Shown here piece by piece: positions 3,240-58,714 of a DNA stretch of 64,000 bases. Position 1 is the first letter of the stretch. Every line of letters starts with the position of its first letter. The notes below the pieces were generated by a model that saw only the letters and a list, made by a program, of their open reading frames with translations, ran no database searches and was not told the DNA's origin. This stretch comes from an uncultured Candidatus Saccharibacteria bacterium. Lineage in GTDB: Bacteria; Patescibacteriota; WWE3; UBA101185; UBA10185. The stretch lies in assembly GCA_964387275.1 (NCBI GenBank), contig CAYLVW010000001.1:227436-291435 (forward strand), read 5' to 3'. The translations under genes were made by a program, and so were the position numbers.

Positions 3240-3965
3240 ATGAAAACACTAACTACTGAGGCTGTTGTTTTAAAGCACAGCCTCTTTAAGGATAATGATA
3301 AGATCATTACTCTTCTTACTAAAGACTTAGGTAAGGTATCCGCTATTGCTAAGGGTATCAGAAAGTTTAACTCTAAGAGATCCGGTCAGTTAGATATACT
3401 TACTCATATAAAGATAAGTCTAGTTGACTATGGCGGTAGGTATATTGTAACCGAAGTTAAAAGTTTAAATTCCTTTCCAAAAATTAAGAATAATTTTGAT
3501 TTGAGTAAGAAAGCATTTTATCTACTAGAGTTGGTGCACAGATTTTTGGAAGAAGATGACACAAAAAGTGAAATATACAGCTTATTGCTGTCTGCTATTT
3601 TGAAATTAGAAAGTTATGAGAAATTTTCCGGCTTTATAGTTAAACATTTTGAACTCAAACTACTAGCTAGTTTGGGTTATGAGATGTGTCTTGATAGGTG
3701 TGCTAAATGCGGAAAGAAATACGTCGGAGATTGGAAGCAAGTTTCGTTTAATTTTGACTATGGCGGTCTAATATGTGATGAATGTAATGTAGGGGGGTTT
3801 AAAATTCAAATTGATACAGCTAATTTACTTAGCTATCTTTACAGTCCTTCAGAATTTAGTGAAAGACCAAAGAATCTAGTTCGTGAGTCTGACTACGTAG
3901 TAACCGAGTTTATGGAACGTGTCCTCGGAAAACCAGTTAAAAGTCTTAGGGTGTTTAGTGTATAA
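3240..3965 (+). CDS. recO: DNA repair protein RecO
   Basis: N-terminal OB-fold signature (EAVVLKHSLFKDNDKIITLLTKDLGKVSAIAKGIRK) and a C-terminal Cys4 zinc motif (CAKCGKK...LICDECN). Confidence 0.8.
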   Translation: MKTLTTEAVVLKHSLFKDNDKIITLLTKDLGKVSAIAKGIRKFNSKRSGQLDILTHIKISLVDYGGRYIVTEVKSLNSFPKIKNNFDLSKKAFYLLELVHRFLEEDDTKSEIYSLLLSAILKLESYEKFSGFIVKHFELKLLASLGYEMCLDRCAKCGKKYVGDWKQVSFNFDYGGLICDECNVGGFKIQIDTANLLSYLYSPSEFSERPKNLVRESDYVVTEFMERVLGKPVKSLRVFSV

Positions 3966-5338: not shown

Positions 5339-5490
5339 TATAGATATTGTTTACACACTTTTAATATCCTGGAGTAGTGAGGATTTTTTGGTTTTAAGAT
5401 TTTGTTTTTATTCCAGTATCTTTCTTAATTCAAGTTAATCTTTATTTTTACCTTTGTCTAAGTAGATTCGGGTTTTATTTGTATTGACAG

Positions 5491-5538
5491 TGGATTTCAA
5501 ATGGTGGAAGATGGATATAGTATGGTGATTAATGGTGA
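5491..5538 (+). promoter_or_regulatory. Five phased TGG(T/A) repeats (GTGGAT, ATGGTG, ATGGAT, ATGGTG, ATGGTG; period 10-12 bp) upstream of mraZ; candidate MraZ operator/dcw promoter
   Basis: Read directly from the sequence, 65-110 nt upstream of the mraZ ATG. MraZ proteins in model bacteria bind direct GTGGG/TGGGN-type repeats with a 10-bp period in their own promoter. Confidence 0.45.
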
Positions 5539-5601
5539 AATAATCAAAAATTCTCACCATGCAATTTCCGTAAAAAGAAGCTGCCTTAAAAATTAATTAC
5601 T

Positions 5602-6015
5602 ATGCAATTATTTCTTGGAGAGTACCAACCAAATATCACAGAGGGATTTCGTCTTGCACTGCCTAAAAAGATGAGAGATCAGATACGAGGTGAAGAGATT
5701 GTACTCTCCAGGGGATTTGAAAAGTGCATATCAATATACGACAAAGAAGAATGGGTAAAGGTTTATGAAAAAGAGTCTGCTGGAGGTTCTATAACAGACT
5801 TAAGATCTAGGGATATAAAAAGATATATGTTTGGGTTGGCTATAGAAACTACAATTGATTCTCAAGGAAGGGTTGTACTTCCGGCGACCTTAAGGGATTA
5901 CGCAGAGTTAAATAAAGAAACAACTATTGTCGGTGCTGGGGATCACATTGAAGTTTGGGATAAGGTTAACTGGGAGAAACACCTAGAGTTTATAGCTTCC
6001 AGACTTACTAGTTAG
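5602..6015 (+). CDS. mraZ: Transcriptional regulator MraZ
   Basis: 137 aa with duplicated MraZ/SpoVT-AbrB-type halves, encoded immediately upstream of rsmH in a dcw cluster. Confidence 0.8.
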   Translation: MQLFLGEYQPNITEGFRLALPKKMRDQIRGEEIVLSRGFEKCISIYDKEEWVKVYEKESAGGSITDLRSRDIKRYMFGLAIETTIDSQGRVVLPATLRDYAELNKETTIVGAGDHIEVWDKVNWEKHLEFIASRLTS

Positions 6016-6016
6016 T

Positions 6017-6910
6017 ATGAAGTATCATGAGCCAGTAATGCTTAAGGAAGTGTTGGCGCAGTTAAATTTTGGGGCAAGTGGAGGTGTAAAGATAATTGAT
6101 GCAACACTTGGGGATGGTGGTCACACGATAGAGCTGCTCAAGAGAGGCTATTGTGTACTAGGGTTAGATGTAAGTGATGTGTCATTAAAAAACGCTACTA
6201 CTAGAATAACGGAGCTTGGGTTAGCAGATAGGTTTAGAGCAGTGAAAGGGAACTTTAAAAACATAGAAAAACTTGCAACTGAGAGTGAATTTGCTGGGGT
6301 GAGTGGTATTTTGTTTGATCTTGGTTATAGCTCATCACAACTATTGGAAGATGAGGTTGGATTGTCTTTCTTAAAAGACCAGCCTTTGGACATGAGATTA
6401 AGTAGTGAACTTGGTGTAACAGCATCTGATCTAGTAAATGTTCTTGCAGAGAAAGACCTAGCTAGAATGTTTTATGATTTAAGTGATGAGAAGTATGCAG
6501 GGAGGTTCGCAAGGGCTATTGTTGAGGCTCGTAAATTGAAGAAATTACAGACAACCAAAGATTTGGCTGATTTGATTAAGTCTGTATCTTCTTTAGGCTA
6601 TGAGCATGGCCGTATCCATCCAGCAACTCGTGTCTTCCAGGCTTTGAGGATTGCTGTAAATGGAGAGTTTGAAAATTTAAAGGTTTCACTGCCTCAGGCG
6701 GCGCACTTGTTACTGCCTGGCGCTAGGATGATTGTAATTACCTTTCATTCTAGCGAAGATCGTTTGGTCAAAGAGTTTGGCCGAAGTGCGCCGCCTGAAC
6801 TAAAAATAAAAGAAACCACCAAAAAACCTATTTTACCTACTGAAACTGAGGTATCATTAAATACACGGTCCAGGAGTGCTAAGATGAGAGTTTTTGAGAA
6901 AGTGCTATGA
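6017..6910 (+). CDS. rsmH: 16S rRNA (cytosine1402-N4)-methyltransferase RsmH (MraW)
   Basis: HEPVMLKEVL...IDATLGDGGHT SAM-binding start and conserved dcw position after mraZ. Confidence 0.85.
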   Translation: MKYHEPVMLKEVLAQLNFGASGGVKIIDATLGDGGHTIELLKRGYCVLGLDVSDVSLKNATTRITELGLADRFRAVKGNFKNIEKLATESEFAGVSGILFDLGYSSSQLLEDEVGLSFLKDQPLDMRLSSELGVTASDLVNVLAEKDLARMFYDLSDEKYAGRFARAIVEARKLKKLQTTKDLADLIKSVSSLGYEHGRIHPATRVFQALRIAVNGEFENLKVSLPQAAHLLLPGARMIVITFHSSEDRLVKEFGRSAPPELKIKETTKKPILPTETEVSLNTRSRSAKMRVFEKVL

Positions 6911-19426: not shown

Positions 19427-19547
19427 TATATTCTCCTCATAGAAGATTCCGTATTTTAAACTCTACGGGTTCTTCTCTTATAGCGAGTTGTACTTGTGCT
19501 TATCGTTAGGTAGGCACTTAATCTTCCCGCTACAAAAATAAATTAAT

Positions 19548-19608
19548 GGTTACCGAATTTTTGTATTTTCTTCGGTAATGTAATATTACCGAATAGTTCC
19601 CGAAAGTC
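19548..19608. promoter_or_regulatory. Candidate SOS operator region in the divergent lexA/uvrB promoter: overlapping palindromes TTACCGAA-N13-TTCGGTAA and TTCGGTAA-N7-TTACCGAA, plus a CCGAA direct repeat
   Basis: Read directly from the sequence between divergently transcribed lexA (-) and uvrB (+). TTACCGAA lies at 19550-19557, TTCGGTAA at 19571-19578 and TTACCGAA at 19586-19593. Confidence 0.45.
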
Positions 19609-19683
19609 AACAAAGATTTTCCTTATTTTAGGTTATTACCTCCAACACCAGATTTATTTACGAAGGTAACCCGAAATGATATT

Positions 19684-21786
19684 ATGTTAGTTATGTTTGA
19701 TTTAAAGTCTAACTACAGTCCTACAGGAGATCAACCAAATGCTATAAACCAACTTACAGAGTGGGTTTTGAAAGACAAACGTAATCAAACTCTTTTAGGT
19801 GTTACAGGATCGGGAAAAACATTTACAATAGCAAATCTAATAAAAAATGTAAGCAAACCCACTCTTATTATTTCTCATAATAAAACTCTCGCCGCTCAGC
19901 TTTACCAAGAGTTTAGAGATTTTTTTCCAAACAACGCTGTAGAGTATTTTGTTAGCTACTATGACTACTATCAGCCCGAAAGTTACATTCCTCAGACAGA
20001 TACCTACATCGAAAAGGATGCAGACATTAACGAGAAGATAGATAAACTTAGATTATCGGCAACTACATCACTCATGACCAGAAAAGATGTTATTGTAATA
20101 TCTTCAGTGTCTTGTATTTATAACCTAGGGTCGCCAGCTGAATACTCAAAAATGGCATTAGAGCTACAAATAGGTATGAAACTCAGACAAGTGGATTTAT
20201 TAAAACGACTTTCTCAAATTTATTATGATAGATCAGAGTTTGAATTCAAAAGAGGAACTTATAGAGTGCGTGGCGAGTACGTAGATGTTTATTTAGCCTA
20301 CACTGATTTTGGTATTAGAATAGAAATATTAAATGACATACTAATGGATATATCTTATTTTGACCCATTGACTGGTAACATTATTGATAAAAGTATTTTA
20401 CCCCAGGAAAGAAGAGGTAGCCACACAAAATCTATAACTCAAGATCCGAAAGATTATGTCGAACAGCATATGGTGCGAGGGAACTATGCCTACATCTACC
20501 CAGCGAAGCATTATATTGCACCCGAGGAGCGTAGAAAGTCAGGTATGGAGCAGATACAAGAAGATTTAAGTACACAGCTTAATCTTCTTAGAAGTCAAGG
20601 AAAAATGATAGAGGCTTATAGGTTAGAGCAGAGGACAAACTATGATTTAGAAATGATTCAGGAGATCGGGTATTGTAAGGGTATTGAAAATTACTCCAGA
20701 TATTTTGACGGTAGGGAGGTTGGTGGTACACCTTATACTTTAATGGACTTTTTTCCAAAAGATTACTTATTAGTAATTGATGAGTCTCATATCACAGTGC
20801 CACAAGTGAGGGGCATGTTTAATGGCGATAGGGCAAGAAAGCAAACATTAGTTGACTATGGATTTAGACTACCATCAGCATTAGATAATAGACCGCTTAA
20901 TTTTGAGGAGTTTTTGCGTAAAGTAAACCAAACAGTTTTTACATCAGCAACCCCTACAGATTGGGAATTAAGCATGTCTGAGGGACGTATAGCCGAGCAA
21001 ATCATACGACCTACTGGAATTGTAGATCCTACTATCAAGATACTACCTAGTAACGGTCAGATTGATGACCTTTTTGCAAGAATTAAACAAAGAATTTCTA
21101 ACTCACAAAGAGTCTTAGTTACTACACTTACCAAAAGAATGGCTGAAGAGCTTGCTTCTTTTCTTGTCGAAAAGGGTATTAAAGTTACATACCTGCACTC
21201 AGATATAGATACTTTGGAAAGAACAAATATCTTGGACGATCTGCGCAAGGGTAATTACGATGTGCTTGTGGGAATCAACTTGTTAAGAGAGGGTTTAGAT
21301 TTACCCGAAGTTTCACTTGTAGCTATTTTAGATGCAGATAAAGAAGGTTTTCTAAGAAGTGATACTTCTCTTATTCAAACTATGGGAAGAGCAGCTCGGC
21401 ATATTCTTGGGGAAGTTGTTATGTATGCAGATAATATTACTGGCAGCATGAGAAGAGCAATAGATGAGGTAGATAGAAGAAGAAAGATTCAAACACAGTA
21501 TAATCTTGATCATGGAATTGTTCCAACCCAAATTAATAAACCCATTAGAGCAAAGTTAATAGATGATGAGATTGAAGAAACCACTACCTCTAAACAAAAG
21601 AGAGGTAGCAAAAAGATTACTGAAAATGAAGATTATACAATCTTACCACCGCCAGAAATTAAAAAGCTTGTAAAAAAGTATACAGAGATGATGAAGTTTG
21701 AGGCAGAAAGTTTGAATTTTGAAAAAGCCGCTGATCTTAGAGATAAACTTCGTGATATCAAAAAGCATTTAGACTCAATTGAGTAA
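19684..21786 (+). CDS. uvrB: Excinuclease ABC subunit B (UvrB)
   Basis: N-terminus SPTGDQPNAINQL...TLLGVTGSGKTFT (Walker A), helicase motifs and a C-terminal UVR domain. The true start may be the ATG at 19693 (MFDLKS...). Confidence 0.9.
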   Translation: MLVMFDLKSNYSPTGDQPNAINQLTEWVLKDKRNQTLLGVTGSGKTFTIANLIKNVSKPTLIISHNKTLAAQLYQEFRDFFPNNAVEYFVSYYDYYQPESYIPQTDTYIEKDADINEKIDKLRLSATTSLMTRKDVIVISSVSCIYNLGSPAEYSKMALELQIGMKLRQVDLLKRLSQIYYDRSEFEFKRGTYRVRGEYVDVYLAYTDFGIRIEILNDILMDISYFDPLTGNIIDKSILPQERRGSHTKSITQDPKDYVEQHMVRGNYAYIYPAKHYIAPEERRKSGMEQIQEDLSTQLNLLRSQGKMIEAYRLEQRTNYDLEMIQEIGYCKGIENYSRYFDGREVGGTPYTLMDFFPKDYLLVIDESHITVPQVRGMFNGDRARKQTLVDYGFRLPSALDNRPLNFEEFLRKVNQTVFTSATPTDWELSMSEGRIAEQIIRPTGIVDPTIKILPSNGQIDDLFARIKQRISNSQRVLVTTLTKRMAEELASFLVEKGIKVTYLHSDIDTLERTNILDDLRKGNYDVLVGINLLREGLDLPEVSLVAILDADKEGFLRSDTSLIQTMGRAARHILGEVVMYADNITGSMRRAIDEVDRRRKIQTQYNLDHGIVPTQINKPIRAKLIDDEIEETTTSKQKRGSKKITENEDYTILPPPEIKKLVKKYTEMMKFEAESLNFEKAADLRDKLRDIKKHLDSIE

Positions 21787-21884: not shown

Positions 21885-23915
21885 TTGATTAATATTGTAA
21901 TTACTAAAACTAAAAGTTTATTCCACGATATATTTTACCTTTCTCTCTTTTTAGTAGTAGGTCTTGGTAATGTTATTCTTAGACTATTCAGAGAAGTTTT
22001 TAGGAAGGTTAGATTTAAAGGTACTGTAGTAACTCAAAATAAATTTAAAACAGTAAGTAAAACTAAAGCTTCCAAAGCTAAAACAAAGTATCATTTGATA
22101 GAATCTATTGGGATTTTTATGTTAGGCTCTGTATTTTCCCTCGTCTTTATTTTTATACCAATTCAAGTGTATTTCTGGTACAGAGACTTACCAAACCCGG
22201 AACTACTAGTTAGCAGAGTCAGAAATAGTAATACAACGATTCTTGATAGATATGGTAGGCTTCTTTACAAACTAAATGAAGATAGTAGCTATGAGAACGT
22301 ACACTTTACACAGATTCCTGACTATGTAATTAAGTCAACATTAGCAATAGAAGATCACGAGTTTTATAATCACTATGGTTTTAGACCACTTAGTATAATA
22401 AGGGCAGCAAGAGCAAACATAGTTTATGATCAAATCCAAGGCGGTTCTACTATTACTCAACAGCTAGTAAAAAACATATTATTATCTCCAGAAAAAACAT
22501 ACTCAAGAAAACTTAAAGAAGTTGTAGTTTCTGTTTTGGTTGAGAAAAGGTACACAAAAGATCAAATACTTGAAATGTATCTAAACAATATTTCATACGG
22601 TGGTTCTTCAATAGGTATCCAAGCTGCGTCAAAAAGTTTTTTTGGAAAAAATGTATGGGATTTATCTTTGGCTGAAGCTACTATGCTCGCAGGACTTCCT
22701 TCAGCTCCCTCAGTTTATTCTCCGACAACAGGAGATTTTGATAAAGCAAAGCAACGTCAACTTTATGTACTTGAGAGGATGGTATCCCTTGGTTATATCA
22801 ATAGGGAGCAGGCAGATGAAGCAATTAAAGATGAGTTAGTATTTATCACCCCTTCAAGTTATATTAGGGCACCTCATTTTGTGAATTATGTACTAGACTT
22901 AGTAAATGAAAAATATGGTAGTGTGTATGTGGCTTCTGGTGGGCTTACTATAAGGACAAGTATAGATTTAGATTTGCAAGAACAAGTTCAGTCCATTGTT
23001 CGATCTGGTGTAGAAAAAAGCAAGTATTTGAATATTACAAACGGCGCAGCATTAGTACTTGATAAAAACAGAAATGAAATTTTAGCTTATGTAGGTTCCT
23101 ATAATTATTCAGTTCCTGGATGGGGAAACTACGATATTATAAGAGCAAAAAGGCAACCTGGTTCTTCCATTAAACCAATCACTTATGCTTTAGCGTTATC
23201 AAAAGGCATGACTGCTGAATCAAAAATATTGGATGATGAGTTAGTAATAAAAAATGATTGGGAAACTTATAAACCTGTTAACTACGACGGTAAATATCAC
23301 GGGGAAGTTACACTCACTTCTGCTTTAGCGAACTCTTACAATATACCAGCGGTTAAACTTACACAGAAGTACGGTGCTTATAGTGTAGTCAATCTAGGTA
23401 AAATAATGGGTCTTAGTAGTTGGAATCCTGACGAAGTAGATTATGGTGTATCTGTTACTCTAGGAGGTAAGGAAGTAACTATGTTGGAACTGGCTAATGT
23501 TTATGCGACTTTTGCAAGACAAGGTTATTTTAGTGATATAGACCCGATAATTTCAATAACCGATAATAATGGATACGAAATATATTCAAATGACGAAGAT
23601 ATTGTATCAGTGGGAGAGCAAGTTTTAGATAAAAATATAGCTCAGACAATAACTAATATACTTTCAAGTAACACAGCGAGAACTCCTGCATTTGGTTCAA
23701 GATCTTCTCTTGTGGTAACGGGTCATACTGTGTCTGTAAAAACAGGCACTACCGACAAAAAGAGAGACAACTGGACTCTTGGTTACGATGAGAATTACGT
23801 TGTGTCCGTTTGGGTAGGAAATAACAATAACATTCCTATGAACCAAAACTTAGCCAGTGGTTTATCTGGTGCAGCTCCTATTTGGAATCAGATTTTTAAT
23901 GCTTTATATAAGTAA
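21885..23915 (+). CDS. Class A penicillin-binding protein (bifunctional GT51 transglycosylase/transpeptidase, PBP1A-like)
   Basis: GT51 motifs (EDHEFYNHYGF, GGSTITQQLVKN) and transpeptidase motifs SxxK (GSSIKP) and KTG (VKTGTT), with an N-terminal TM anchor. Confidence 0.85.
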   Translation: MINIVITKTKSLFHDIFYLSLFLVVGLGNVILRLFREVFRKVRFKGTVVTQNKFKTVSKTKASKAKTKYHLIESIGIFMLGSVFSLVFIFIPIQVYFWYRDLPNPELLVSRVRNSNTTILDRYGRLLYKLNEDSSYENVHFTQIPDYVIKSTLAIEDHEFYNHYGFRPLSIIRAARANIVYDQIQGGSTITQQLVKNILLSPEKTYSRKLKEVVVSVLVEKRYTKDQILEMYLNNISYGGSSIGIQAASKSFFGKNVWDLSLAEATMLAGLPSAPSVYSPTTGDFDKAKQRQLYVLERMVSLGYINREQADEAIKDELVFITPSSYIRAPHFVNYVLDLVNEKYGSVYVASGGLTIRTSIDLDLQEQVQSIVRSGVEKSKYLNITNGAALVLDKNRNEILAYVGSYNYSVPGWGNYDIIRAKRQPGSSIKPITYALALSKGMTAESKILDDELVIKNDWETYKPVNYDGKYHGEVTLTSALANSYNIPAVKLTQKYGAYSVVNLGKIMGLSSWNPDEVDYGVSVTLGGKEVTMLELANVYATFARQGYFSDIDPIISITDNNGYEIYSNDEDIVSVGEQVLDKNIAQTITNILSSNTARTPAFGSRSSLVVTGHTVSVKTGTTDKKRDNWTLGYDENYVVSVWVGNNNNIPMNQNLASGLSGAAPIWNQIFNALYK

Positions 23916-24078
23916 GTTTAATATATTTCCCTAGTAGTATGGTTTCTAGTAATATCTGGGTAGAAGTTTTACTTTTAACTAGCACCAAAATAGTATACCT
24001 AGGTTTTAAGTGTGTCCTATTTATTATTGGAAAAATTCCTACTTCACAAACCCGAAATTATCCCGTAAACTCATTTTT

Positions 24079-27000
24079 ATGTCATCAGCTCTGGACTCTA
24101 TTATTGTTAAAGGTGCAAAGCAGCACAACCTCAAAAATGTTGATCTTGTGATACCAAAAAATAAGTTTGTCGTTTTTACCGGTGTTTCAGGTTCTGGTAA
24201 ATCTTCTCTTGCTATGGACACCATATACGCTGAAGGTCAACGAAGATATGTTGAGAGCCTTTCTGCCTATGCTAGGCAATTTCTTGGTGTTATGGATAAG
24301 CCAGACGTTGAAAAAATCGAAGGCCTATCCCCCGCTATTGCTATAGACCAAAAGACTACTTCAAGAAATCCAAGATCTACTGTAGGTACAATCACAGAAG
24401 TTTATGATTTTCTTAGACTTTTGTACGCTCGGGTTGGGCATCCCCATTGTCCTACTTGTGGTAGGGAAATTAGCAGGCAAAGTACTGATCAGATAGTAGA
24501 AAGAATTTTTACTCTTGCATCCCAAGAACCCGATTTTAAAAAAGAAAAAGGTGTGAGATTTATGATTATGTCCCCTGTTGTTAGAGACAGAAAAGGAGAG
24601 TTTTCTACTCTCTTTGATAATTTAAAACGCCAAGGAATATTTAAAGCTCGAATCGACGGTGTTATCAGAAATCTTGGTGACCATCTTGAGCTGCTTAAAA
24701 ATAATAAACACACTGTAGAGGCTATTATTTCTAGAAATATTATCAGTTCTAAAAAGCTTAAAGATTCAGAAGACGGGAAATCTTTAAGATCCTCGATTAC
24801 TCAAAGTATTGAGGCTGCACTAAGGCTTAGTAATGGCAATGCTATGTTATCTATTATTAAAGACAGCTCATTCGATTTTCCAGAAAATCCGAAAGAAGTT
24901 GAAGATCATTTATTTTCTGAAAACTTTGCCTGTCCTTTTTGTAATATTTCTTTACCCGATATAGAACCCAGAACCTTCTCGTTTAACTCTCCTCATGGTG
25001 CCTGTCCTTCCTGTGATGGGCTAGGCACTCAGCTTGATATAGACGAAACTACTATCCTAAATAAAGAATTGTCTATAAGTGAGGGAGGGGTGCTTCCTTG
25101 GAACAAACTTTTTGAACATACAACTTGGACCTCTATGGTTATAGACTCTGTTGCAAAAGACTATGGATTCTCTTTGGATACACCTATAAAAGATCTATCC
25201 AAGGAGCATCTGGAGCTCATACTTTACGGACCCAAAGAACTTAAAAAGTTCAAAGTTACATATAATACTAAAGACGGTAACAGTGGTAACTTCAATTCTA
25301 AGTTTGAGGGAGTGATTCCTAATTTATTAAGAAGGCACAAAGAGACCGAATCAGATTATGTACGTGGAGAGATTGAAAAATACATGGTAAGAGAAGCATG
25401 TCCTGTATGTAAGGGTGCGAGATTAAAGAAAGAGGCTATGTCTGTAGTAATTGATAGTAAAAGTATTTTTGAAAGTACTGAACAGCCCATCGATGTTTTT
25501 GCTTCTTGGGTAAGTCATATAGAGAACGAGGTATTTTCTGAAAGAGAGAACTCTATTGCTGAAGGAATACTAAAAGAAATAAATTACAGAGTTAAATTTT
25601 TAGTTGATGTTGGTTTGTCTTATCTAACTTTGAGTAGAGCATCTTCTCACTTATCAGGTGGGGAAGCACAGCGTATTAGATTGGCATCACAAATAGGTTC
25701 TGGTTTGTCAGGAGTGTTATATGTACTTGATGAGCCGTCTATTGGTCTTCATCAAAGAGACCAAGGTAAACTTATAACTACACTAAAGCATCTAAGAGAT
25801 CTTGGTAACACCGTACTTGTAGTCGAACATGATACAGAAACAATGCTTGAATCTGACTATATTTTTGATTTTGGTCCTGGAGCCGGAGAGCATGGGGGTA
25901 AGATAGTATCAGAAGGCACCCCAGAGCAAATAAAAAAAGATAAGAATTCTGCTACTGGGGACTATCTTTCTGGAAGGAAAGTGGTAGGAGGTTTATATAA
26001 CAAAATAAAAAAAGACCTCGAAGAGCTCGATCCAGAGTCTGGTTTTTCCAAAACTGTTAAAGAAAAAATTTTAGGTAAATCCCTTGTTCTTAAAGGAGCT
26101 ACAGGAAGGAATCTCAAAAACGCTAATCTTGAAGTTCCTCTTGGGAAATTTGTTTGTGTTACTGGGGTTTCAGGTTCTGGGAAATCCACCTTAGTTATGG
26201 ATACTTTGTATAGAGCTTTAAGGCATGAGTTTGGTTTAAAAAATGACGAGAAGCCAGAGCCTTTTAAATCTTTAACTGGGACAGAGAATATTACTCAAAT
26301 GATAGCCATTGATCAGGCACCAATTGGACGTACTCCTAAGTCTAATCCAGCGACTTACACTAAGGTTTTTGATCACATTAGAGAACTTTTCTCTAAGACC
26401 GAGGAAGCCAGAATTAGAGGTTATAAAGAAGGTAGGTTTAGTTTTAATGTTAAGGGTGGCAGGTGTGAAGCCTGTGGCGGTGAAGGTCAGATTAAAATTG
26501 AAATGCAGTTTATGCCCGACGTTTATGTGAATTGTGAGGTTTGTCAGGGTAAGAGATACAATCGTGAAGCTTTGGAGATTTTTTATAAAGGTAAAACAAT
26601 TGCAGATGTTTTGGATATGACTGTTGATGAGGCGTTGAATTTTTTTGCAAACATACCTCAGATTTACAGGAAGTTGAAAACAATTCAGGATGTCGGTTTG
26701 GGATATATCAGGCTAGGCCAACCTGCACCTACTATGTCTGGCGGTGAGGCTCAGAGGGTTAAGCTTGCATTAGAGCTTTCTAAAAGATCTTATGGCAGTG
26801 CTTTATATATTCTTGATGAGCCTACTACAGGTTTGCACTTCTCTGATCTTGAAAAACTAGTTGTAATTATCAAAAGGCTTACAGCTAAGGGTAATACTGT
26901 TCTTGTTATAGAGCACAACTTAGATCTTATTGCTAATGCTGATTGGGTAATTGATTTAGGTCCTGAAGGTGGTACAAATGGAGGTAGGGTTCTATTTAAT

Positions 27001-40669: not shown

Positions 40670-41050
40670 AAGTTTTTTCTACTTGCTTATTTTTGTAAGT
40701 AAGCCCAAGTCGCTATACTTTTCGTTCGTTTTTTTGAAGTAAGATTTATTCTTACAATATAGGGCTTGGGTTTTCAGGAGTTGAGGTTCTATTGTTATAC
40801 ATACGAAGGATGAGTTTTCTGCTTTTGCTTACGTAAACTCCTTTACTTAACACACTAACCTTATTGTCTGCTAATAAATTTTGTGTTTTGATAAAAATCA
40901 CAACGTAAATATTTAAAAGTTTTGTGGGCCACCAATTTTTTTATCGTAGTCAGGTAGGATAATGCTCAATCCTATACAGGGTACGATAGAGTTGATAACA
41001 ACTCCAACAGGCAGTGAAAGGTTGTTGCCTCATAAAATTTTCCCTGCACC

Positions 41051-43567
41051 ATGAACTGGTCAAATGTAGGAGGTTCTAGCACCTCTGAAACTTCTAAAGT
41101 TGCGGATACTACCGCAAATGTTTCTACGTCTCCAATTAAGCATCAAAAAAATCAAACTATCGAATTGTCGGAAAACTCTAGGAAAATCCTTGAAAAAAGG
41201 TATTTGAGGAGAGATGAAAAGGGTGCCCCTGCAGAAACAGTCGAGGGGATGTTTGATAGGATTGCAAAAACTATGGCAGAACCTGATAAGGGTTATAGAG
41301 ATACCGAGATTTCTGAGATAGAATACTACAACTTACTTTCTCAGAAAAAATTTTTTCCTAATTCACCAACATTTACTGGAGCCGGTACACCGCTAGGGCA
41401 GCTGGCTGCATGTTTTGTTCTTCCAGTTGCTGATGATCTTGGTAAAAGATCTGATGGTATTTTTTCAACACTTCGGGTTGCTGCTCTAATTCAGCAAGTT
41501 GGTGGTGGTAACGGCTTTTCTTTTTCTGATCTTAGGCCAAAAAATTCCAGAGTAGAGAGTAGCAATGGTAAGGCAACAGGTCCAGTAGGCTTTATGAAAG
41601 TTTATGATAGTGCATTTGGGGAGGTAGCTCAGGGTGGGGTTAGAAGAGGAGCTAATATGGGTGTATTACAAGTAGATCACCCAGATATAAGGGAGTTTAT
41701 TCAATGTAAGGCTGAAGAAGGTCAAGTTTCTAACTTTAATATTTCTGTTGCAATTACTGACAAATTTATGAAGGCGGTAATTGATGATACAACTTACGAT
41801 TTAGTAGACCCACATACAAAAAGAGTTACAGAATCCCCAAGAGCACGAGAGATATTTGAGATGATAGTAGAGTACGCTTACAGAAATGGAGAACCAGGAG
41901 CTTTGTTTATAGATGCTGCCAACAGACAGAACCCTGTTCCTCATCTTTACGATTTAAAAGCAACAAATCCCTGTGGAGAGCAGTGGCTAGGGCCTTATGA
42001 GAACTGTTGTTTAGGTTCTATTAATCTACTTCAAAATATTGATTCAAATGGAAACTTAGATTGGGAACAGTTTAGGGAGTCCATAGAGCTTTCAACTAGG
42101 TTTTTGGACAATGTTGTTACAGCTAATAAATACGTACCTGCTGTTCCAGAGCTTAGGCAAGCTGCAGAAAATGTTCGTAGGATTGGGTTAGGCTTAATGG
42201 GTCTTGCTGATGTAATGTATTCGATGGGAATTAGATACGGAAGTGATGAAGGTCAGGAATTTGCAGCTCAGGTTTCTGAGTTTATGAGATATCACTCTAT
42301 GAAGACTTCAATTCAGCTAGCGAAAGAAAGGGGGCCTTTCTTAAAAATAGAAGGCAGTATATACGATCCTAAGAATTTGAAGTTTGAGGTGCCAAAGCCC
42401 TTGAAACCTTACACAAGGAATTGGGGGCGACCCTCACTTAATTGGAATGAGATTGTAGACGGAATTAAATCTTATGGTATTAGAAACGGCGCCCAAACTA
42501 CGATTGCACCAACAGGAACTATTTCTACAGTTGCTGGTGTGGAAGGCTACGGATGTGAACCAGTTTTTGCTTTAGCTTATCTACGTAATGTTTACCAAGC
42601 TGCAGGAGATTCTGGTAAGTTAACGTTAACCTACGTGTCTCCATTATTTGAGAAGGCTTTGGATAAGTTGAATTTAAGTGCTGATATAAAGAAGAAAGTA
42701 TTAGATGAGGTTTTGGATAAAGGTACATGTCAACATATTGAAGAAATCCCCGAAGAGATTAGAAGAGTTTTTGTTGTATCTTCGGATGTTAGTGCAGAAG
42801 AACACATCATGATGCAAGCTTCTATCCAAGCATTTATTGATAACTCGATTTCTAAAACTTGTAATTTTCCTTCAACCGCTACTAAAGAAGATGTCGCTAA
42901 CGCTTACATACTTGGTTGGCAGAATGGTTGCAAGGGTCTTACGGTTTATGTAACAGGTTCTAGGCAAGAAGTTGTGTTGGAGACAAAGGAAACAAAAGCC
43001 AAGAAGGAAGGAGTTCCTGCTGAAGTTACAGTTAAGGTCGATGGATCTATTGTTGCTAATAGAGATTTACAGCAAAGTAGGGGTTACAAGCTTGCAGGAA
43101 CTACTTACAAAGTCGATACTCCCCAGGGTAAAGCGTTTATTACTGTGAATAAAGACTCTGATGGATCTCCTCTTGAGGTATTTGCAAGTGTTGGTAAGGC
43201 CGGTAGTGATGTTGCTGCTTTGTCAGAAGCATTAGGCAGACTTATTTCAGGTTGGCTTAGGTCTTCCAGTAACCCAGCAAAAACAGTCTACGAAATTGTT
43301 GTACAGCTAATTGGGATTGGTGGTGCTAGATCAGTTGGTTTTGGTGCTAAGAGGGTAAGTTCTATACCAGATGCTGTTGCTCAAGTTCTTGCTGAGGAGT
43401 TTGATATTAGAGTTCGTTCTAATGGTCAGAATAAAGTTGAAGAACAAAAAAAGACTGTTACAGCAGCAACCAGCCACACTAATATGTGTCCTGAGTGTGG
43501 TAATTCTTCTTTAGTTTTGGAAGAGGGTTGTGCAAAGTGTTACGATTGCGGTTACTCAGTCTGTTAG
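41051..43567 (+). CDS. nrdJ: Ribonucleoside-diphosphate/triphosphate reductase, class II (adenosylcobalamin-dependent, NrdJ)
   Basis: Class II RNR motifs TNPCGEQWL and NCCLGSINL, a 10-stranded barrel core, and a C-terminal Cys4 zinc ribbon CPECGNSS...[12 protein letters not shown]. Confidence 0.85.
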
Positions 43568-58637: not shown

Positions 58638-58714
58638 GGGCTTATAGCTCAGCTGGTCAGAGCGCTGCATTCACATTGCAGAGGTCCTTGGTTCGAGCCC
58701 AAGTAAGCCCACCA
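58638..58714 (+). tRNA. tRNA-Val (anticodon CAC), CCA encoded
   Basis: GGGCTTA acceptor pairs with TAAGCCC. D-arm GCTC/GAGC, anticodon stem CTGCA/TGCAG with loop TTCACAT, T-arm CTTGG-TTCGAGC-CCAAG, 3' ACCA. Confidence 0.85.

Follow-up and report, generated by a model that had tools for sequence, protein, structure and literature searches.

Putative direct-repeat LexA operators on the core promoters of divergent lexA and uvrB genes in a WWE3 genome

Which of the repeats crowded between the divergent genes lexA and uvrB would serve as the operator is the question raised by a 64-kb stretch of contig CAYLVW010000001.1, assembled from an uncultured bacterium of the WWE3 lineage (hereafter the window; all coordinates are window positions). 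An earlier interpretation made from the letters without database searches (the sequence-only reading) had proposed that half-sites in the spacer form two overlapping palindromes, to which LexA, the repressor of the SOS response, would bind. Comparison with orthologous loci leads us to a different geometry: the spacer repeats most plausibly represent three copies of a LexA operator of the direct-repeat type, placed on the core promoters of lexA and uvrB. It is very probable, judging from conservation and promoter context, that each of the two divergent promoters is occluded by LexA on such a direct repeat and not on a palindrome. Read in this way, the spacer is not a new palindromic operator but an ordinary SOS control region, of a type known from published work on the superphylum.

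The repeats themselves are not in dispute. The octamer TTACCGAA occurs at 19550-57 (+), 19571-78 (-) and 19586-93 (+), which are its sole exact copies in the window; three copies in 64 kb are unremarkable by number (1.66 expected), and all three lie within 44 bp. They form two inverted repeats just as the sequence-only reading described. A repeat finder confirmed the first, TTACCGAA-N13-TTCGGTAA, and showed that the second is better written TTCGGTAAT-N5-ATTACCGAA, with 9-nt arms at 19571-19593. The spacer also holds direct repeats: CGAA-N7-CGAA occurs in the window only at 19590-19604 and 19661-19675, against 0.46 occurrences expected, and both copies lie on one strand of the spacer. Two secondary features of the earlier interpretation, a CCGAA direct repeat with copies 11 bp apart and a copy of ACGAAGGTAACCCGAAAT ahead of uvrB, are real operator units, corresponding to what we call Box 1 and Box 3. 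Its remark that nothing here resembles the known boxes also holds, since neither a Cheo-type (GAAC-N4-GTTC) nor an E. coli-type (CTGT-N8-ACAG) box was found in the spacer even with one mismatch allowed. Both flanking genes were confirmed by Pfam.

Hundreds of close homologues of the window LexA bear the name candidate division WWE3 or Patescibacteria. NCBI taxonomy treats WWE3 as a candidate phylum of its own, and GTDB places it inside Patescibacteria. For comparison, a scan of one genome per species yielded 80 lexA loci from WWE3 and Microgenomates (e.g., Daviesbacteria and Amesbacteria), in which LexA is 58% to 88% identical to that of the window; the closest relative, locus L081, encodes a LexA that is 93% identical. 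When the 300 nt 5' of every lexA were laid side by side, a recurrent architecture emerged, TTGACA(-35)-nn-TTCGGnnnnnnTTCGGTAnnAT(-10), followed in most WWE3 by ATACCGAAaGAAAanACAAA. The TTGACA...TAnnAT promoter frame is kept in 74 of the 80 loci, and in 74/80 the -35 and -10 elements enclose a TTCGG direct repeat of 11-bp period, the conserved element being TTCGG-N6-TTCGGTA. A block further downstream, ATACCGAA-GAAAATA-CAAA, is the same direct repeat when read on the opposite strand, TTTG-N7-TTCGGTA. Alignment of the closest relatives showed conservation of the -35 element, Box 1, the -10 element and Box 2 only, between flanks that are unrelated.

Spacing statistics from 78 non-redundant orthologous lexA upstream regions point the same way. 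In an unbiased count of all 4-mer/gap/4-mer pairs, with random 150-nt pieces of the same loci as background, the top dyads were TTGAC-N3-TTCG and TTCG-N7-TTCG, which join into the pattern TTGAC-N3-TTCG-N7-TTCGGTA. Strict TTCG-N7-TTCG was present in 45 of the 78 regions, a 78-fold enrichment over the random pieces, and relaxed TTYG-N7-TTYG in 70; a single sharp peak marks this spacing, and none of the other direct spacings is enriched. A direct-repeat architecture of fixed spacing is therefore what the orthologues retain (70/78), and it recurs as lone direct repeats at uvrB and mraZ; a canonical palindromic LexA box with fixed, conserved dyad spacing was not found.

To locate sites, an 18-nt weight matrix was built from 69 distinct Box 1 sites, all in genomes other than that of the window. 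Its consensus, TTCGGgt-N4-TTCGGTA, has an 11-bp period, and matches of at least 14 bits are expected by chance about 0.23 times per 64-kb window. The three top matches in the window (24.0, 19.3 and 17.2 bits) all fall in the lexA–uvrB spacer (Table 1). Box 1, the highest of them, is a direct repeat that fills the region between the -35 and -10 elements of the lexA promoter and overlaps the -10 by 2 nt. Box 2 has the opposite orientation and spans the predicted lexA start together with the initial ~17 transcribed nucleotides, the start itself probably lying near the position derived from the -10 element. The operator thus sits on the promoter of lexA itself, with Box 1 inside the -35/-10 interval and Box 2 across the predicted start, as it does in the 74 loci. 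In most WWE3 loci with a leader, a conserved block 15-17 nt from Box 1 is the counterpart of Box 2, and in L081 Box 1 is identical and Box 2 near-identical to those of the window. The sequence-only reading had named conservation of its half-sites in relatives as a check; the Box 1 direct repeat is conserved, and the arm at 19550-57 is missing from L081.

Table 1. Predicted and confirmed features at the lexA–uvrB locus and the mraZ promoter (window positions)
Feature	Positions	Strand	Remarks
Box 1, principal LexA operator (putative) TTCGGGAACTATTCGGTA	19587..19604	-	24.0 bits, rank 1 in 64 kb
Box 2, LexA operator (putative) TTTGTATTTTCTTCGGTA	19560..19577	+	19.3 bits, rank 2 in window
Box 3, uvrB operator (putative) TTCGGGTTACCTTCGTAA	19658..19675	-	17.2 bits, rank 3 in window
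lexA promoter	19583..19610	-	Promoter scan; -35 TTGACT (19605-19610), 16-nt spacer, -10 TAATAT (19583-19588)
lexA 5' leader, predicted, about 150 nt	19427..19576	-	Start inferred from -10 position
lexA coding sequence, 209 aa	18797..19426	-	Pfam PF01726 and PF00717; alignments to solved LexA structures
uvrB extended -10 TGATATTAT	19677..19685	+	Promoter scan, TG flag set; TG-extended TATTAT
uvrB coding sequence	19693..21786	+	Pfam UvrB domains; start revised from 19684, MFDLKS...
Orphan half-site TTCGGTAA, left arm of palindrome 1	19550..19557	-	In no full direct-repeat operator
mraZ box TTCGGGTTTTATTTGTAT	5467..5484	+	15.3 bits, rank 4 in window

In the absence of Box 2 the direct repeat stands by itself: lexA genes of this kind mostly have leaders shorter than 30 nt and carry a lone direct repeat with no inverted partner. 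Many Microgenomates and some WWE3 loci (L018, L034, L045, L047-L051, L060-L080) start lexA a few nucleotides past the -10 element; there Box 2 is absent, the direct-repeat Box 1 alone remains, and the lexA mRNA also looks leaderless.

On the other side of the spacer, Box 3 covers the uvrB promoter in its -35 region and spacer, stopping 2 nt short of the TG in the extended -10. It is a lone direct repeat without an inverted partner. Across the loci, a site of at least 13 bits within -120 to +20 of the start was present at 44 of 64 uvrB genes, compared to 9 of 977 other genes used as controls, and a uvrB gene located 0.4-5.7 kb from lexA still has a box of its own. In WWE3-type loci this box usually begins about -31 to -51 from the start codon. 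L081 provides a useful case: a glycosyltransferase gene lies between uvrB and lexA, yet uvrB retains TTCGGGTTATTTTCGTAA. Because uvrB keeps its box when set apart from lexA, Box 3 would be a uvrB operator in its own right. When the matrix was also run over 1.36 Mb of lexA loci, 97 matches of at least 13 bits adjoined lexA and 48 lay elsewhere, many of the latter a short way upstream of genes assigned by Pfam to UvrB or UvrA. The motif therefore occurs at other DNA-damage promoters beyond chance (uvrB, 44/64 versus 9/977, including uvrB genes distant from lexA, and some uvrA genes).

The geometry of this promoter also revises the start of uvrB. Orthologous uvrB genes begin ATG TTY RAN YTN at the position of 19693, 7 nt past the extended -10, whereas the program-listed start at ATG 19684 falls inside the predicted -10 element. 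A TAnnnT motif ending 5-8 nt before the start codon was found in 39 of 44 WWE3-type uvrB genes, with a TGn extension in 38, and none of the 44 has a Shine-Dalgarno-like motif, compared to 29 of 45 lexA genes with leaders. The orthologue starts and the leaderless-promoter geometry together favor 19693 over 19684, and the uvrB mRNA is predicted to be leaderless, beginning at that ATG. The 257-bp spacer given previously is correct for ATG 19684, but becomes 266 bp with the start favored by orthologue alignment. The further suggestion that lexA and uvrB share one control region in a classic arrangement stands in part: the two genes are divergent neighbors in 30 of the 63 loci holding uvrB, so the pairing is common in the lineage, but the classic arrangement known from model organisms is a different one. 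Lineage-specific LexA operators in the spacer, as had been proposed there, would place both genes under LexA.

The protein encoded by lexA has the properties that such a circuit would need. It comprises a winged helix-turn-helix N-terminal domain and an S24 peptidase domain, the self-cleaving domain of a cognate LexA, and its full-length alignment to the E. coli and Thermotoga LexA structures keeps the AAG, GDSM and LKR motifs. The cleavage site Ala92-Gly93 and the catalytic dyad Ser128/Lys166 are present, and the protein is, by these motifs, a canonical and cleavable LexA. The counterpart of the E. coli recognition helix is SSLATVHEHLQAL, which differs from that of E. coli and is conserved at every position in at least 90% of 81 LexAs from WWE3, Daviesbacteria, Amesbacteria and others. 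The recognition region is thus held in common with Microgenomates-type LexA, and the conserved helix fits a common specificity, different from that of E. coli, across these lineages.

We therefore propose a simple mechanism, in which LexA is the putative binding protein. By the precedent of the alphaproteobacterial GTTC-N7-GTTC box, one LexA dimer would bind each direct repeat. LexA on Boxes 1 and 2 would occlude RNA polymerase at the lexA promoter and so produce autorepression. At uvrB, Box 3 would stand in for the -35 element, immediately 5' of the extended -10 (TGnTATTAT), and because it sits on the promoter of uvrB itself, uvrB could be repressed independently of lexA. DNA damage would then stimulate LexA self-cleavage through RecA, and both promoters would be freed.

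A fourth match in the window, of lower score, lies outside the spacer and may extend the regulon beyond DNA repair. This box abuts the -35 element TTGACA (5483-5488) of the promoter of mraZ, the first gene of the division and cell wall (dcw) cluster mraZ-rsmH-ftsL, and like Box 3 it is a lone direct repeat with no inverted partner. For comparison, 66 metagenomic mraZ loci (L083-L148) were fetched, in which MraZ is mostly 50-61% identical to that of the window. In 64 of these WWE3-like loci, a box on the same strand reached at least 13 bits in 37 and at least 10 bits in 49, and most of the loci keep its position and orientation; elsewhere in 171 kb only three matches of that strength were found. 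The conserved block begins exactly at TTCG; its 4-nt inner spacer varies and both 7-mers are nearly invariant. Boxes of this type also occur at L015 19915-19932 and L017 10989-11006. On the 3' side of the mraZ -35 element, a series of TGGA/TGGTGG/TGGTGA repeats (5489-5560) with a period of about 10-12 bp is kept across the mraZ loci, and these TGGTGA-type repeats are probably MraZ autoregulatory boxes. Conservation of the LexA-type box at the mraZ promoter suggests that DNA damage is directly linked to the division cluster. That the WWE3 LexA regulon reaches cell division directly, through the direct repeat TTCGGGTTTTnTTTGTAT abutting the mraZ -35, is a tentative proposal that we hold to be somewhat less probable than its opposite. 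SOS boxes have been described in the 5' region of the dcw cluster in E. coli (PMC3265435), so LexA control of the mraZ promoter would have a precedent. If LexA binds the mraZ box, DNA damage in these minimal genomes would be coupled to division via the dcw promoter and not through a division inhibitor of the SulA or YneA type.

An alternative hypothesis is that LexA binds symmetrically to the palindromes TTACCGAA-N13-TTCGGTAA and TTCGGTAA-N7-TTACCGAA and that the direct repeats are incidental. Both palindromes are perfect in the window, with arms of 8-9 nt, most known LexA boxes are palindromic (PMC8565304), and the promoter-proximal half-sites are paired in inverted orientation (TTYG..CRAA, the counterpart of palindrome 2) in about 42 of the 78 orthologous regions. 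The spacing of that pair, however, drifts among N14, N15 and N16, or from N11 to N16 in the Box 2 register, while the direct spacing of N7 is fixed in 70/78. From the positions of the boxes, palindrome 2 is the place where Boxes 1 and 2, arranged head to head, meet with their promoter-proximal halves. Palindrome 1 fares worse, as its CGAA..TTCG spacing shows no peak across the 78 regions, it has no counterpart in orthologues, and its left arm is missing in L081 despite the close relationship. Lone direct repeats at lexA promoters without Box 2, at uvrB (Box 3) and at mraZ also count against symmetric binding. Given the variable spacing and missing conservation, we reject the palindromes as operator units and hold symmetric binding to be very unlikely; of the sequence-only reading, it is the operator geometry that must be given up. 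The left palindrome may nevertheless have a role as RNA, which would be compatible with LexA binding to the direct repeats. When the leader is folded as RNA, its arms at 19550-57 and 19571-78 pair over 8 bp at the very start of the predicted lexA transcript (nt 3-31 of the modeled leader), and a stem-loop of this kind could stabilize the lexA mRNA or modulate its translation. The leader as a whole folds with a minimum free energy of -37.1 kcal/mol (z = -4.57 versus shuffles) and for its first 42 nt z is -3.4. In several other lineages (L009, L015/L017, L041, L043 and L044) the transcribed Box 2 half-site is likewise taken up in a similar 5' stem, with loops of about 10 to 20 nt and stem sequences that differ. 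Against this, such structure is not universal (mean z of -1.1 over 43 leaders, 11 of which fall below -2), the stem model depends on a transcription start inferred from the -10 position, and, since the downstream arm matches a LexA half-site too, weak LexA binding there is possible. We give this RNA role an even chance. As for the half-site at 19550-57 itself, no matrix match of at least 8 bits includes it, and it is absent from L081, L001, L082 and L003. Since it belongs to no full site, is missing in L081 and falls in the predicted 5' stem, we read it, with moderate confidence, as a lineage-specific RNA feature, the 3' arm of the 5' stem-loop, and not as an operator.

It could also be argued that the direct repeats are bound by another regulator, such as MraZ or an uncharacterized factor exerting joint control over lexA, uvrB and the dcw cluster. 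The high conservation of the same box at the mraZ promoter speaks for this, and MraZ proteins bind short direct repeats of roughly 10-bp period. The position of the box on the lexA core promoter (74/80) and at nucleotide-excision-repair genes is, on the other hand, the signature of an autoregulated SOS regulon, and the mraZ promoter has its separate TGGTGA-type repeats 3' of the -35, which are a better fit to MraZ. In addition, an experimentally validated LexA motif of the direct-repeat type has been reported for Patescibacteria, as discussed below. We regard this alternative as highly improbable.

Several observations nevertheless count against LexA acting through direct-repeat operators as proposed here. 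The assignment of the boxes to LexA draws on their position at lexA, uvrB and uvrA and on the published Patescibacteria motif, and the related genomes share ancestry, so that the locus counts are not independent events. Box 2 reaches at least 10 bits in only 19 of 45 WWE3 loci with leaders, the others having TACG as the distal half, and may be a weak or auxiliary site. Signatures of recA, ruvB and dinB were found neither in the window nor in the 80 loci. The 380-nt spacer (within 40670-43567) ahead of a class II ribonucleotide reductase gene contained no LexA box of at least 8 bits and no Rfam match. This gene (41051..43567), whose product has a C-terminal TSCPD domain, follows ftsA and ftsZ.

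Downstream of the control region, three genes share a strand: uvrB, one encoding a class A penicillin-binding protein (21885..23915), and uvrA (24031..26958). They are separated by no predicted terminator, and no LexA box of at least 8 bits was found upstream of uvrA in the window. A LexA-controlled uvrB-pbp-uvrA operon may therefore exist, in which uvrA is co-transcribed with uvrB and the penicillin-binding protein gene. Boxes of 14-20 bits are found at the start of uvrA in other loci (L053/L055/L056/L057 at ~3515-3568, L080 at 3632-3649 and L062 at 6007-6024). Because uvrA boxes occur in some lineages only, regulation of uvrA seems to be lineage-specific and that of uvrB widespread.

The lexA leader has some further structure. 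Hairpins are predicted at about 19441-19476 and 19481-19536 (- strand), and a terminator-like hairpin lies at 19496-19517 on the strand opposite to the leader. No Rfam family was matched in the spacer or the leader, the sole Rfam match in the window being a tRNA at 58638-58711. The leader of L081 is about 55 nt long, with ~100 nt of the window leader missing there. A separate observation concerns the source records: many metagenome-assembled genomes (L002, L005, L006, L053-L057, L071, L073 and others) are titled 'uncultured Candidatus Saccharibacteria' or 'Gammaproteobacteria', yet their lexA/uvrB loci are of WWE3 or Microgenomates type and have the same operators. For this reason, the deposited taxonomy of those records looks wrong.

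Taken as proposed, the locus suggests that WWE3, an uncultured and genome-reduced lineage in the candidate phyla radiation (CPR), keeps a compact, autoregulated SOS circuit centered on nucleotide-excision repair. That circuit would be read via a direct-repeat LexA operator, for which exact operator and promoter coordinates are given here. Correcting a plausible but wrong palindromic reading is relevant to scans of CPR genomes for SOS genes, which it would mislead because a search for palindromes would miss the uvrB, uvrA and mraZ sites.

How does this operator compare to known LexA systems? LexA motifs vary widely and several direct-repeat forms have been reported (PMC8565304). The closest parallel is the Patescibacteria LexA motif (Sanchez-Osuna, Barbe & Erill 2017, Environ Microbiol 19:3465, PMID 28618189), which PMC7739468 cites among direct-repeat LexA motifs; LexAs of Collierbacteria (Microgenomates) and Parcubacteria are listed as experimentally validated in Table S2 of PMC8565304. 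Microgenomates loci of our comparison set carry the same TTCGGGT-N4-TTYGGTA box together with SSLATVHEHLQAL. Both the published motif and the box described here are non-canonical direct repeats, and they belong to the same superphylum in the GTDB sense. WWE3, however, is a separate candidate phylum for NCBI and may lie outside the 2017 study. Given that the architecture is shared and the recognition helix invariant in Microgenomates loci, the WWE3 box would probably be identical to the published Patescibacteria consensus.

The resemblance to other direct-repeat systems is one of form. The GTTC-N7-GTTC box of Alphaproteobacteria and Acidobacterium (motif as given in PMC8565304) has the same N7 spacing and 11-bp period and serves lexA autoregulation and DNA-repair genes. 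Its tetranucleotide is different, though, as the repeat unit here is TTCG, extended to TTCGG[G/T][T/A], and the lineage is unrelated. In the matrix the base before TTCG is mostly C or variable, and not G, so the WWE3 box is not a variant of the alphaproteobacterial GTTC repeat. PMC7739468 describes the direct-repeat LexA motifs of these unrelated lineages as being of independent origin. The Balneolaeota motif TTACACATATTTTWTACATA, from the same paper, is also a non-palindromic direct repeat and was also found by motif discovery on lexA promoters; it differs in sequence and repeat length, and the Balneolaeota regulon has translesion polymerases, which were not seen here. The E. coli SOS box (CTGT-N8-ACAG) and the Gram-positive Cheo box follow the same logic, in which a cleavable LexA occludes the core promoters of lexA and uvr genes, but these are palindromic boxes with a fixed dyad symmetry, none of which is present in the spacer. 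Set against all of these systems, two features of the WWE3 locus could be undescribed: an operator that replaces the -35 element of a leaderless, extended -10 uvrB promoter, and a lexA promoter with two boxes set head to head, its transcribed half-site being used again in a 5' mRNA stem.

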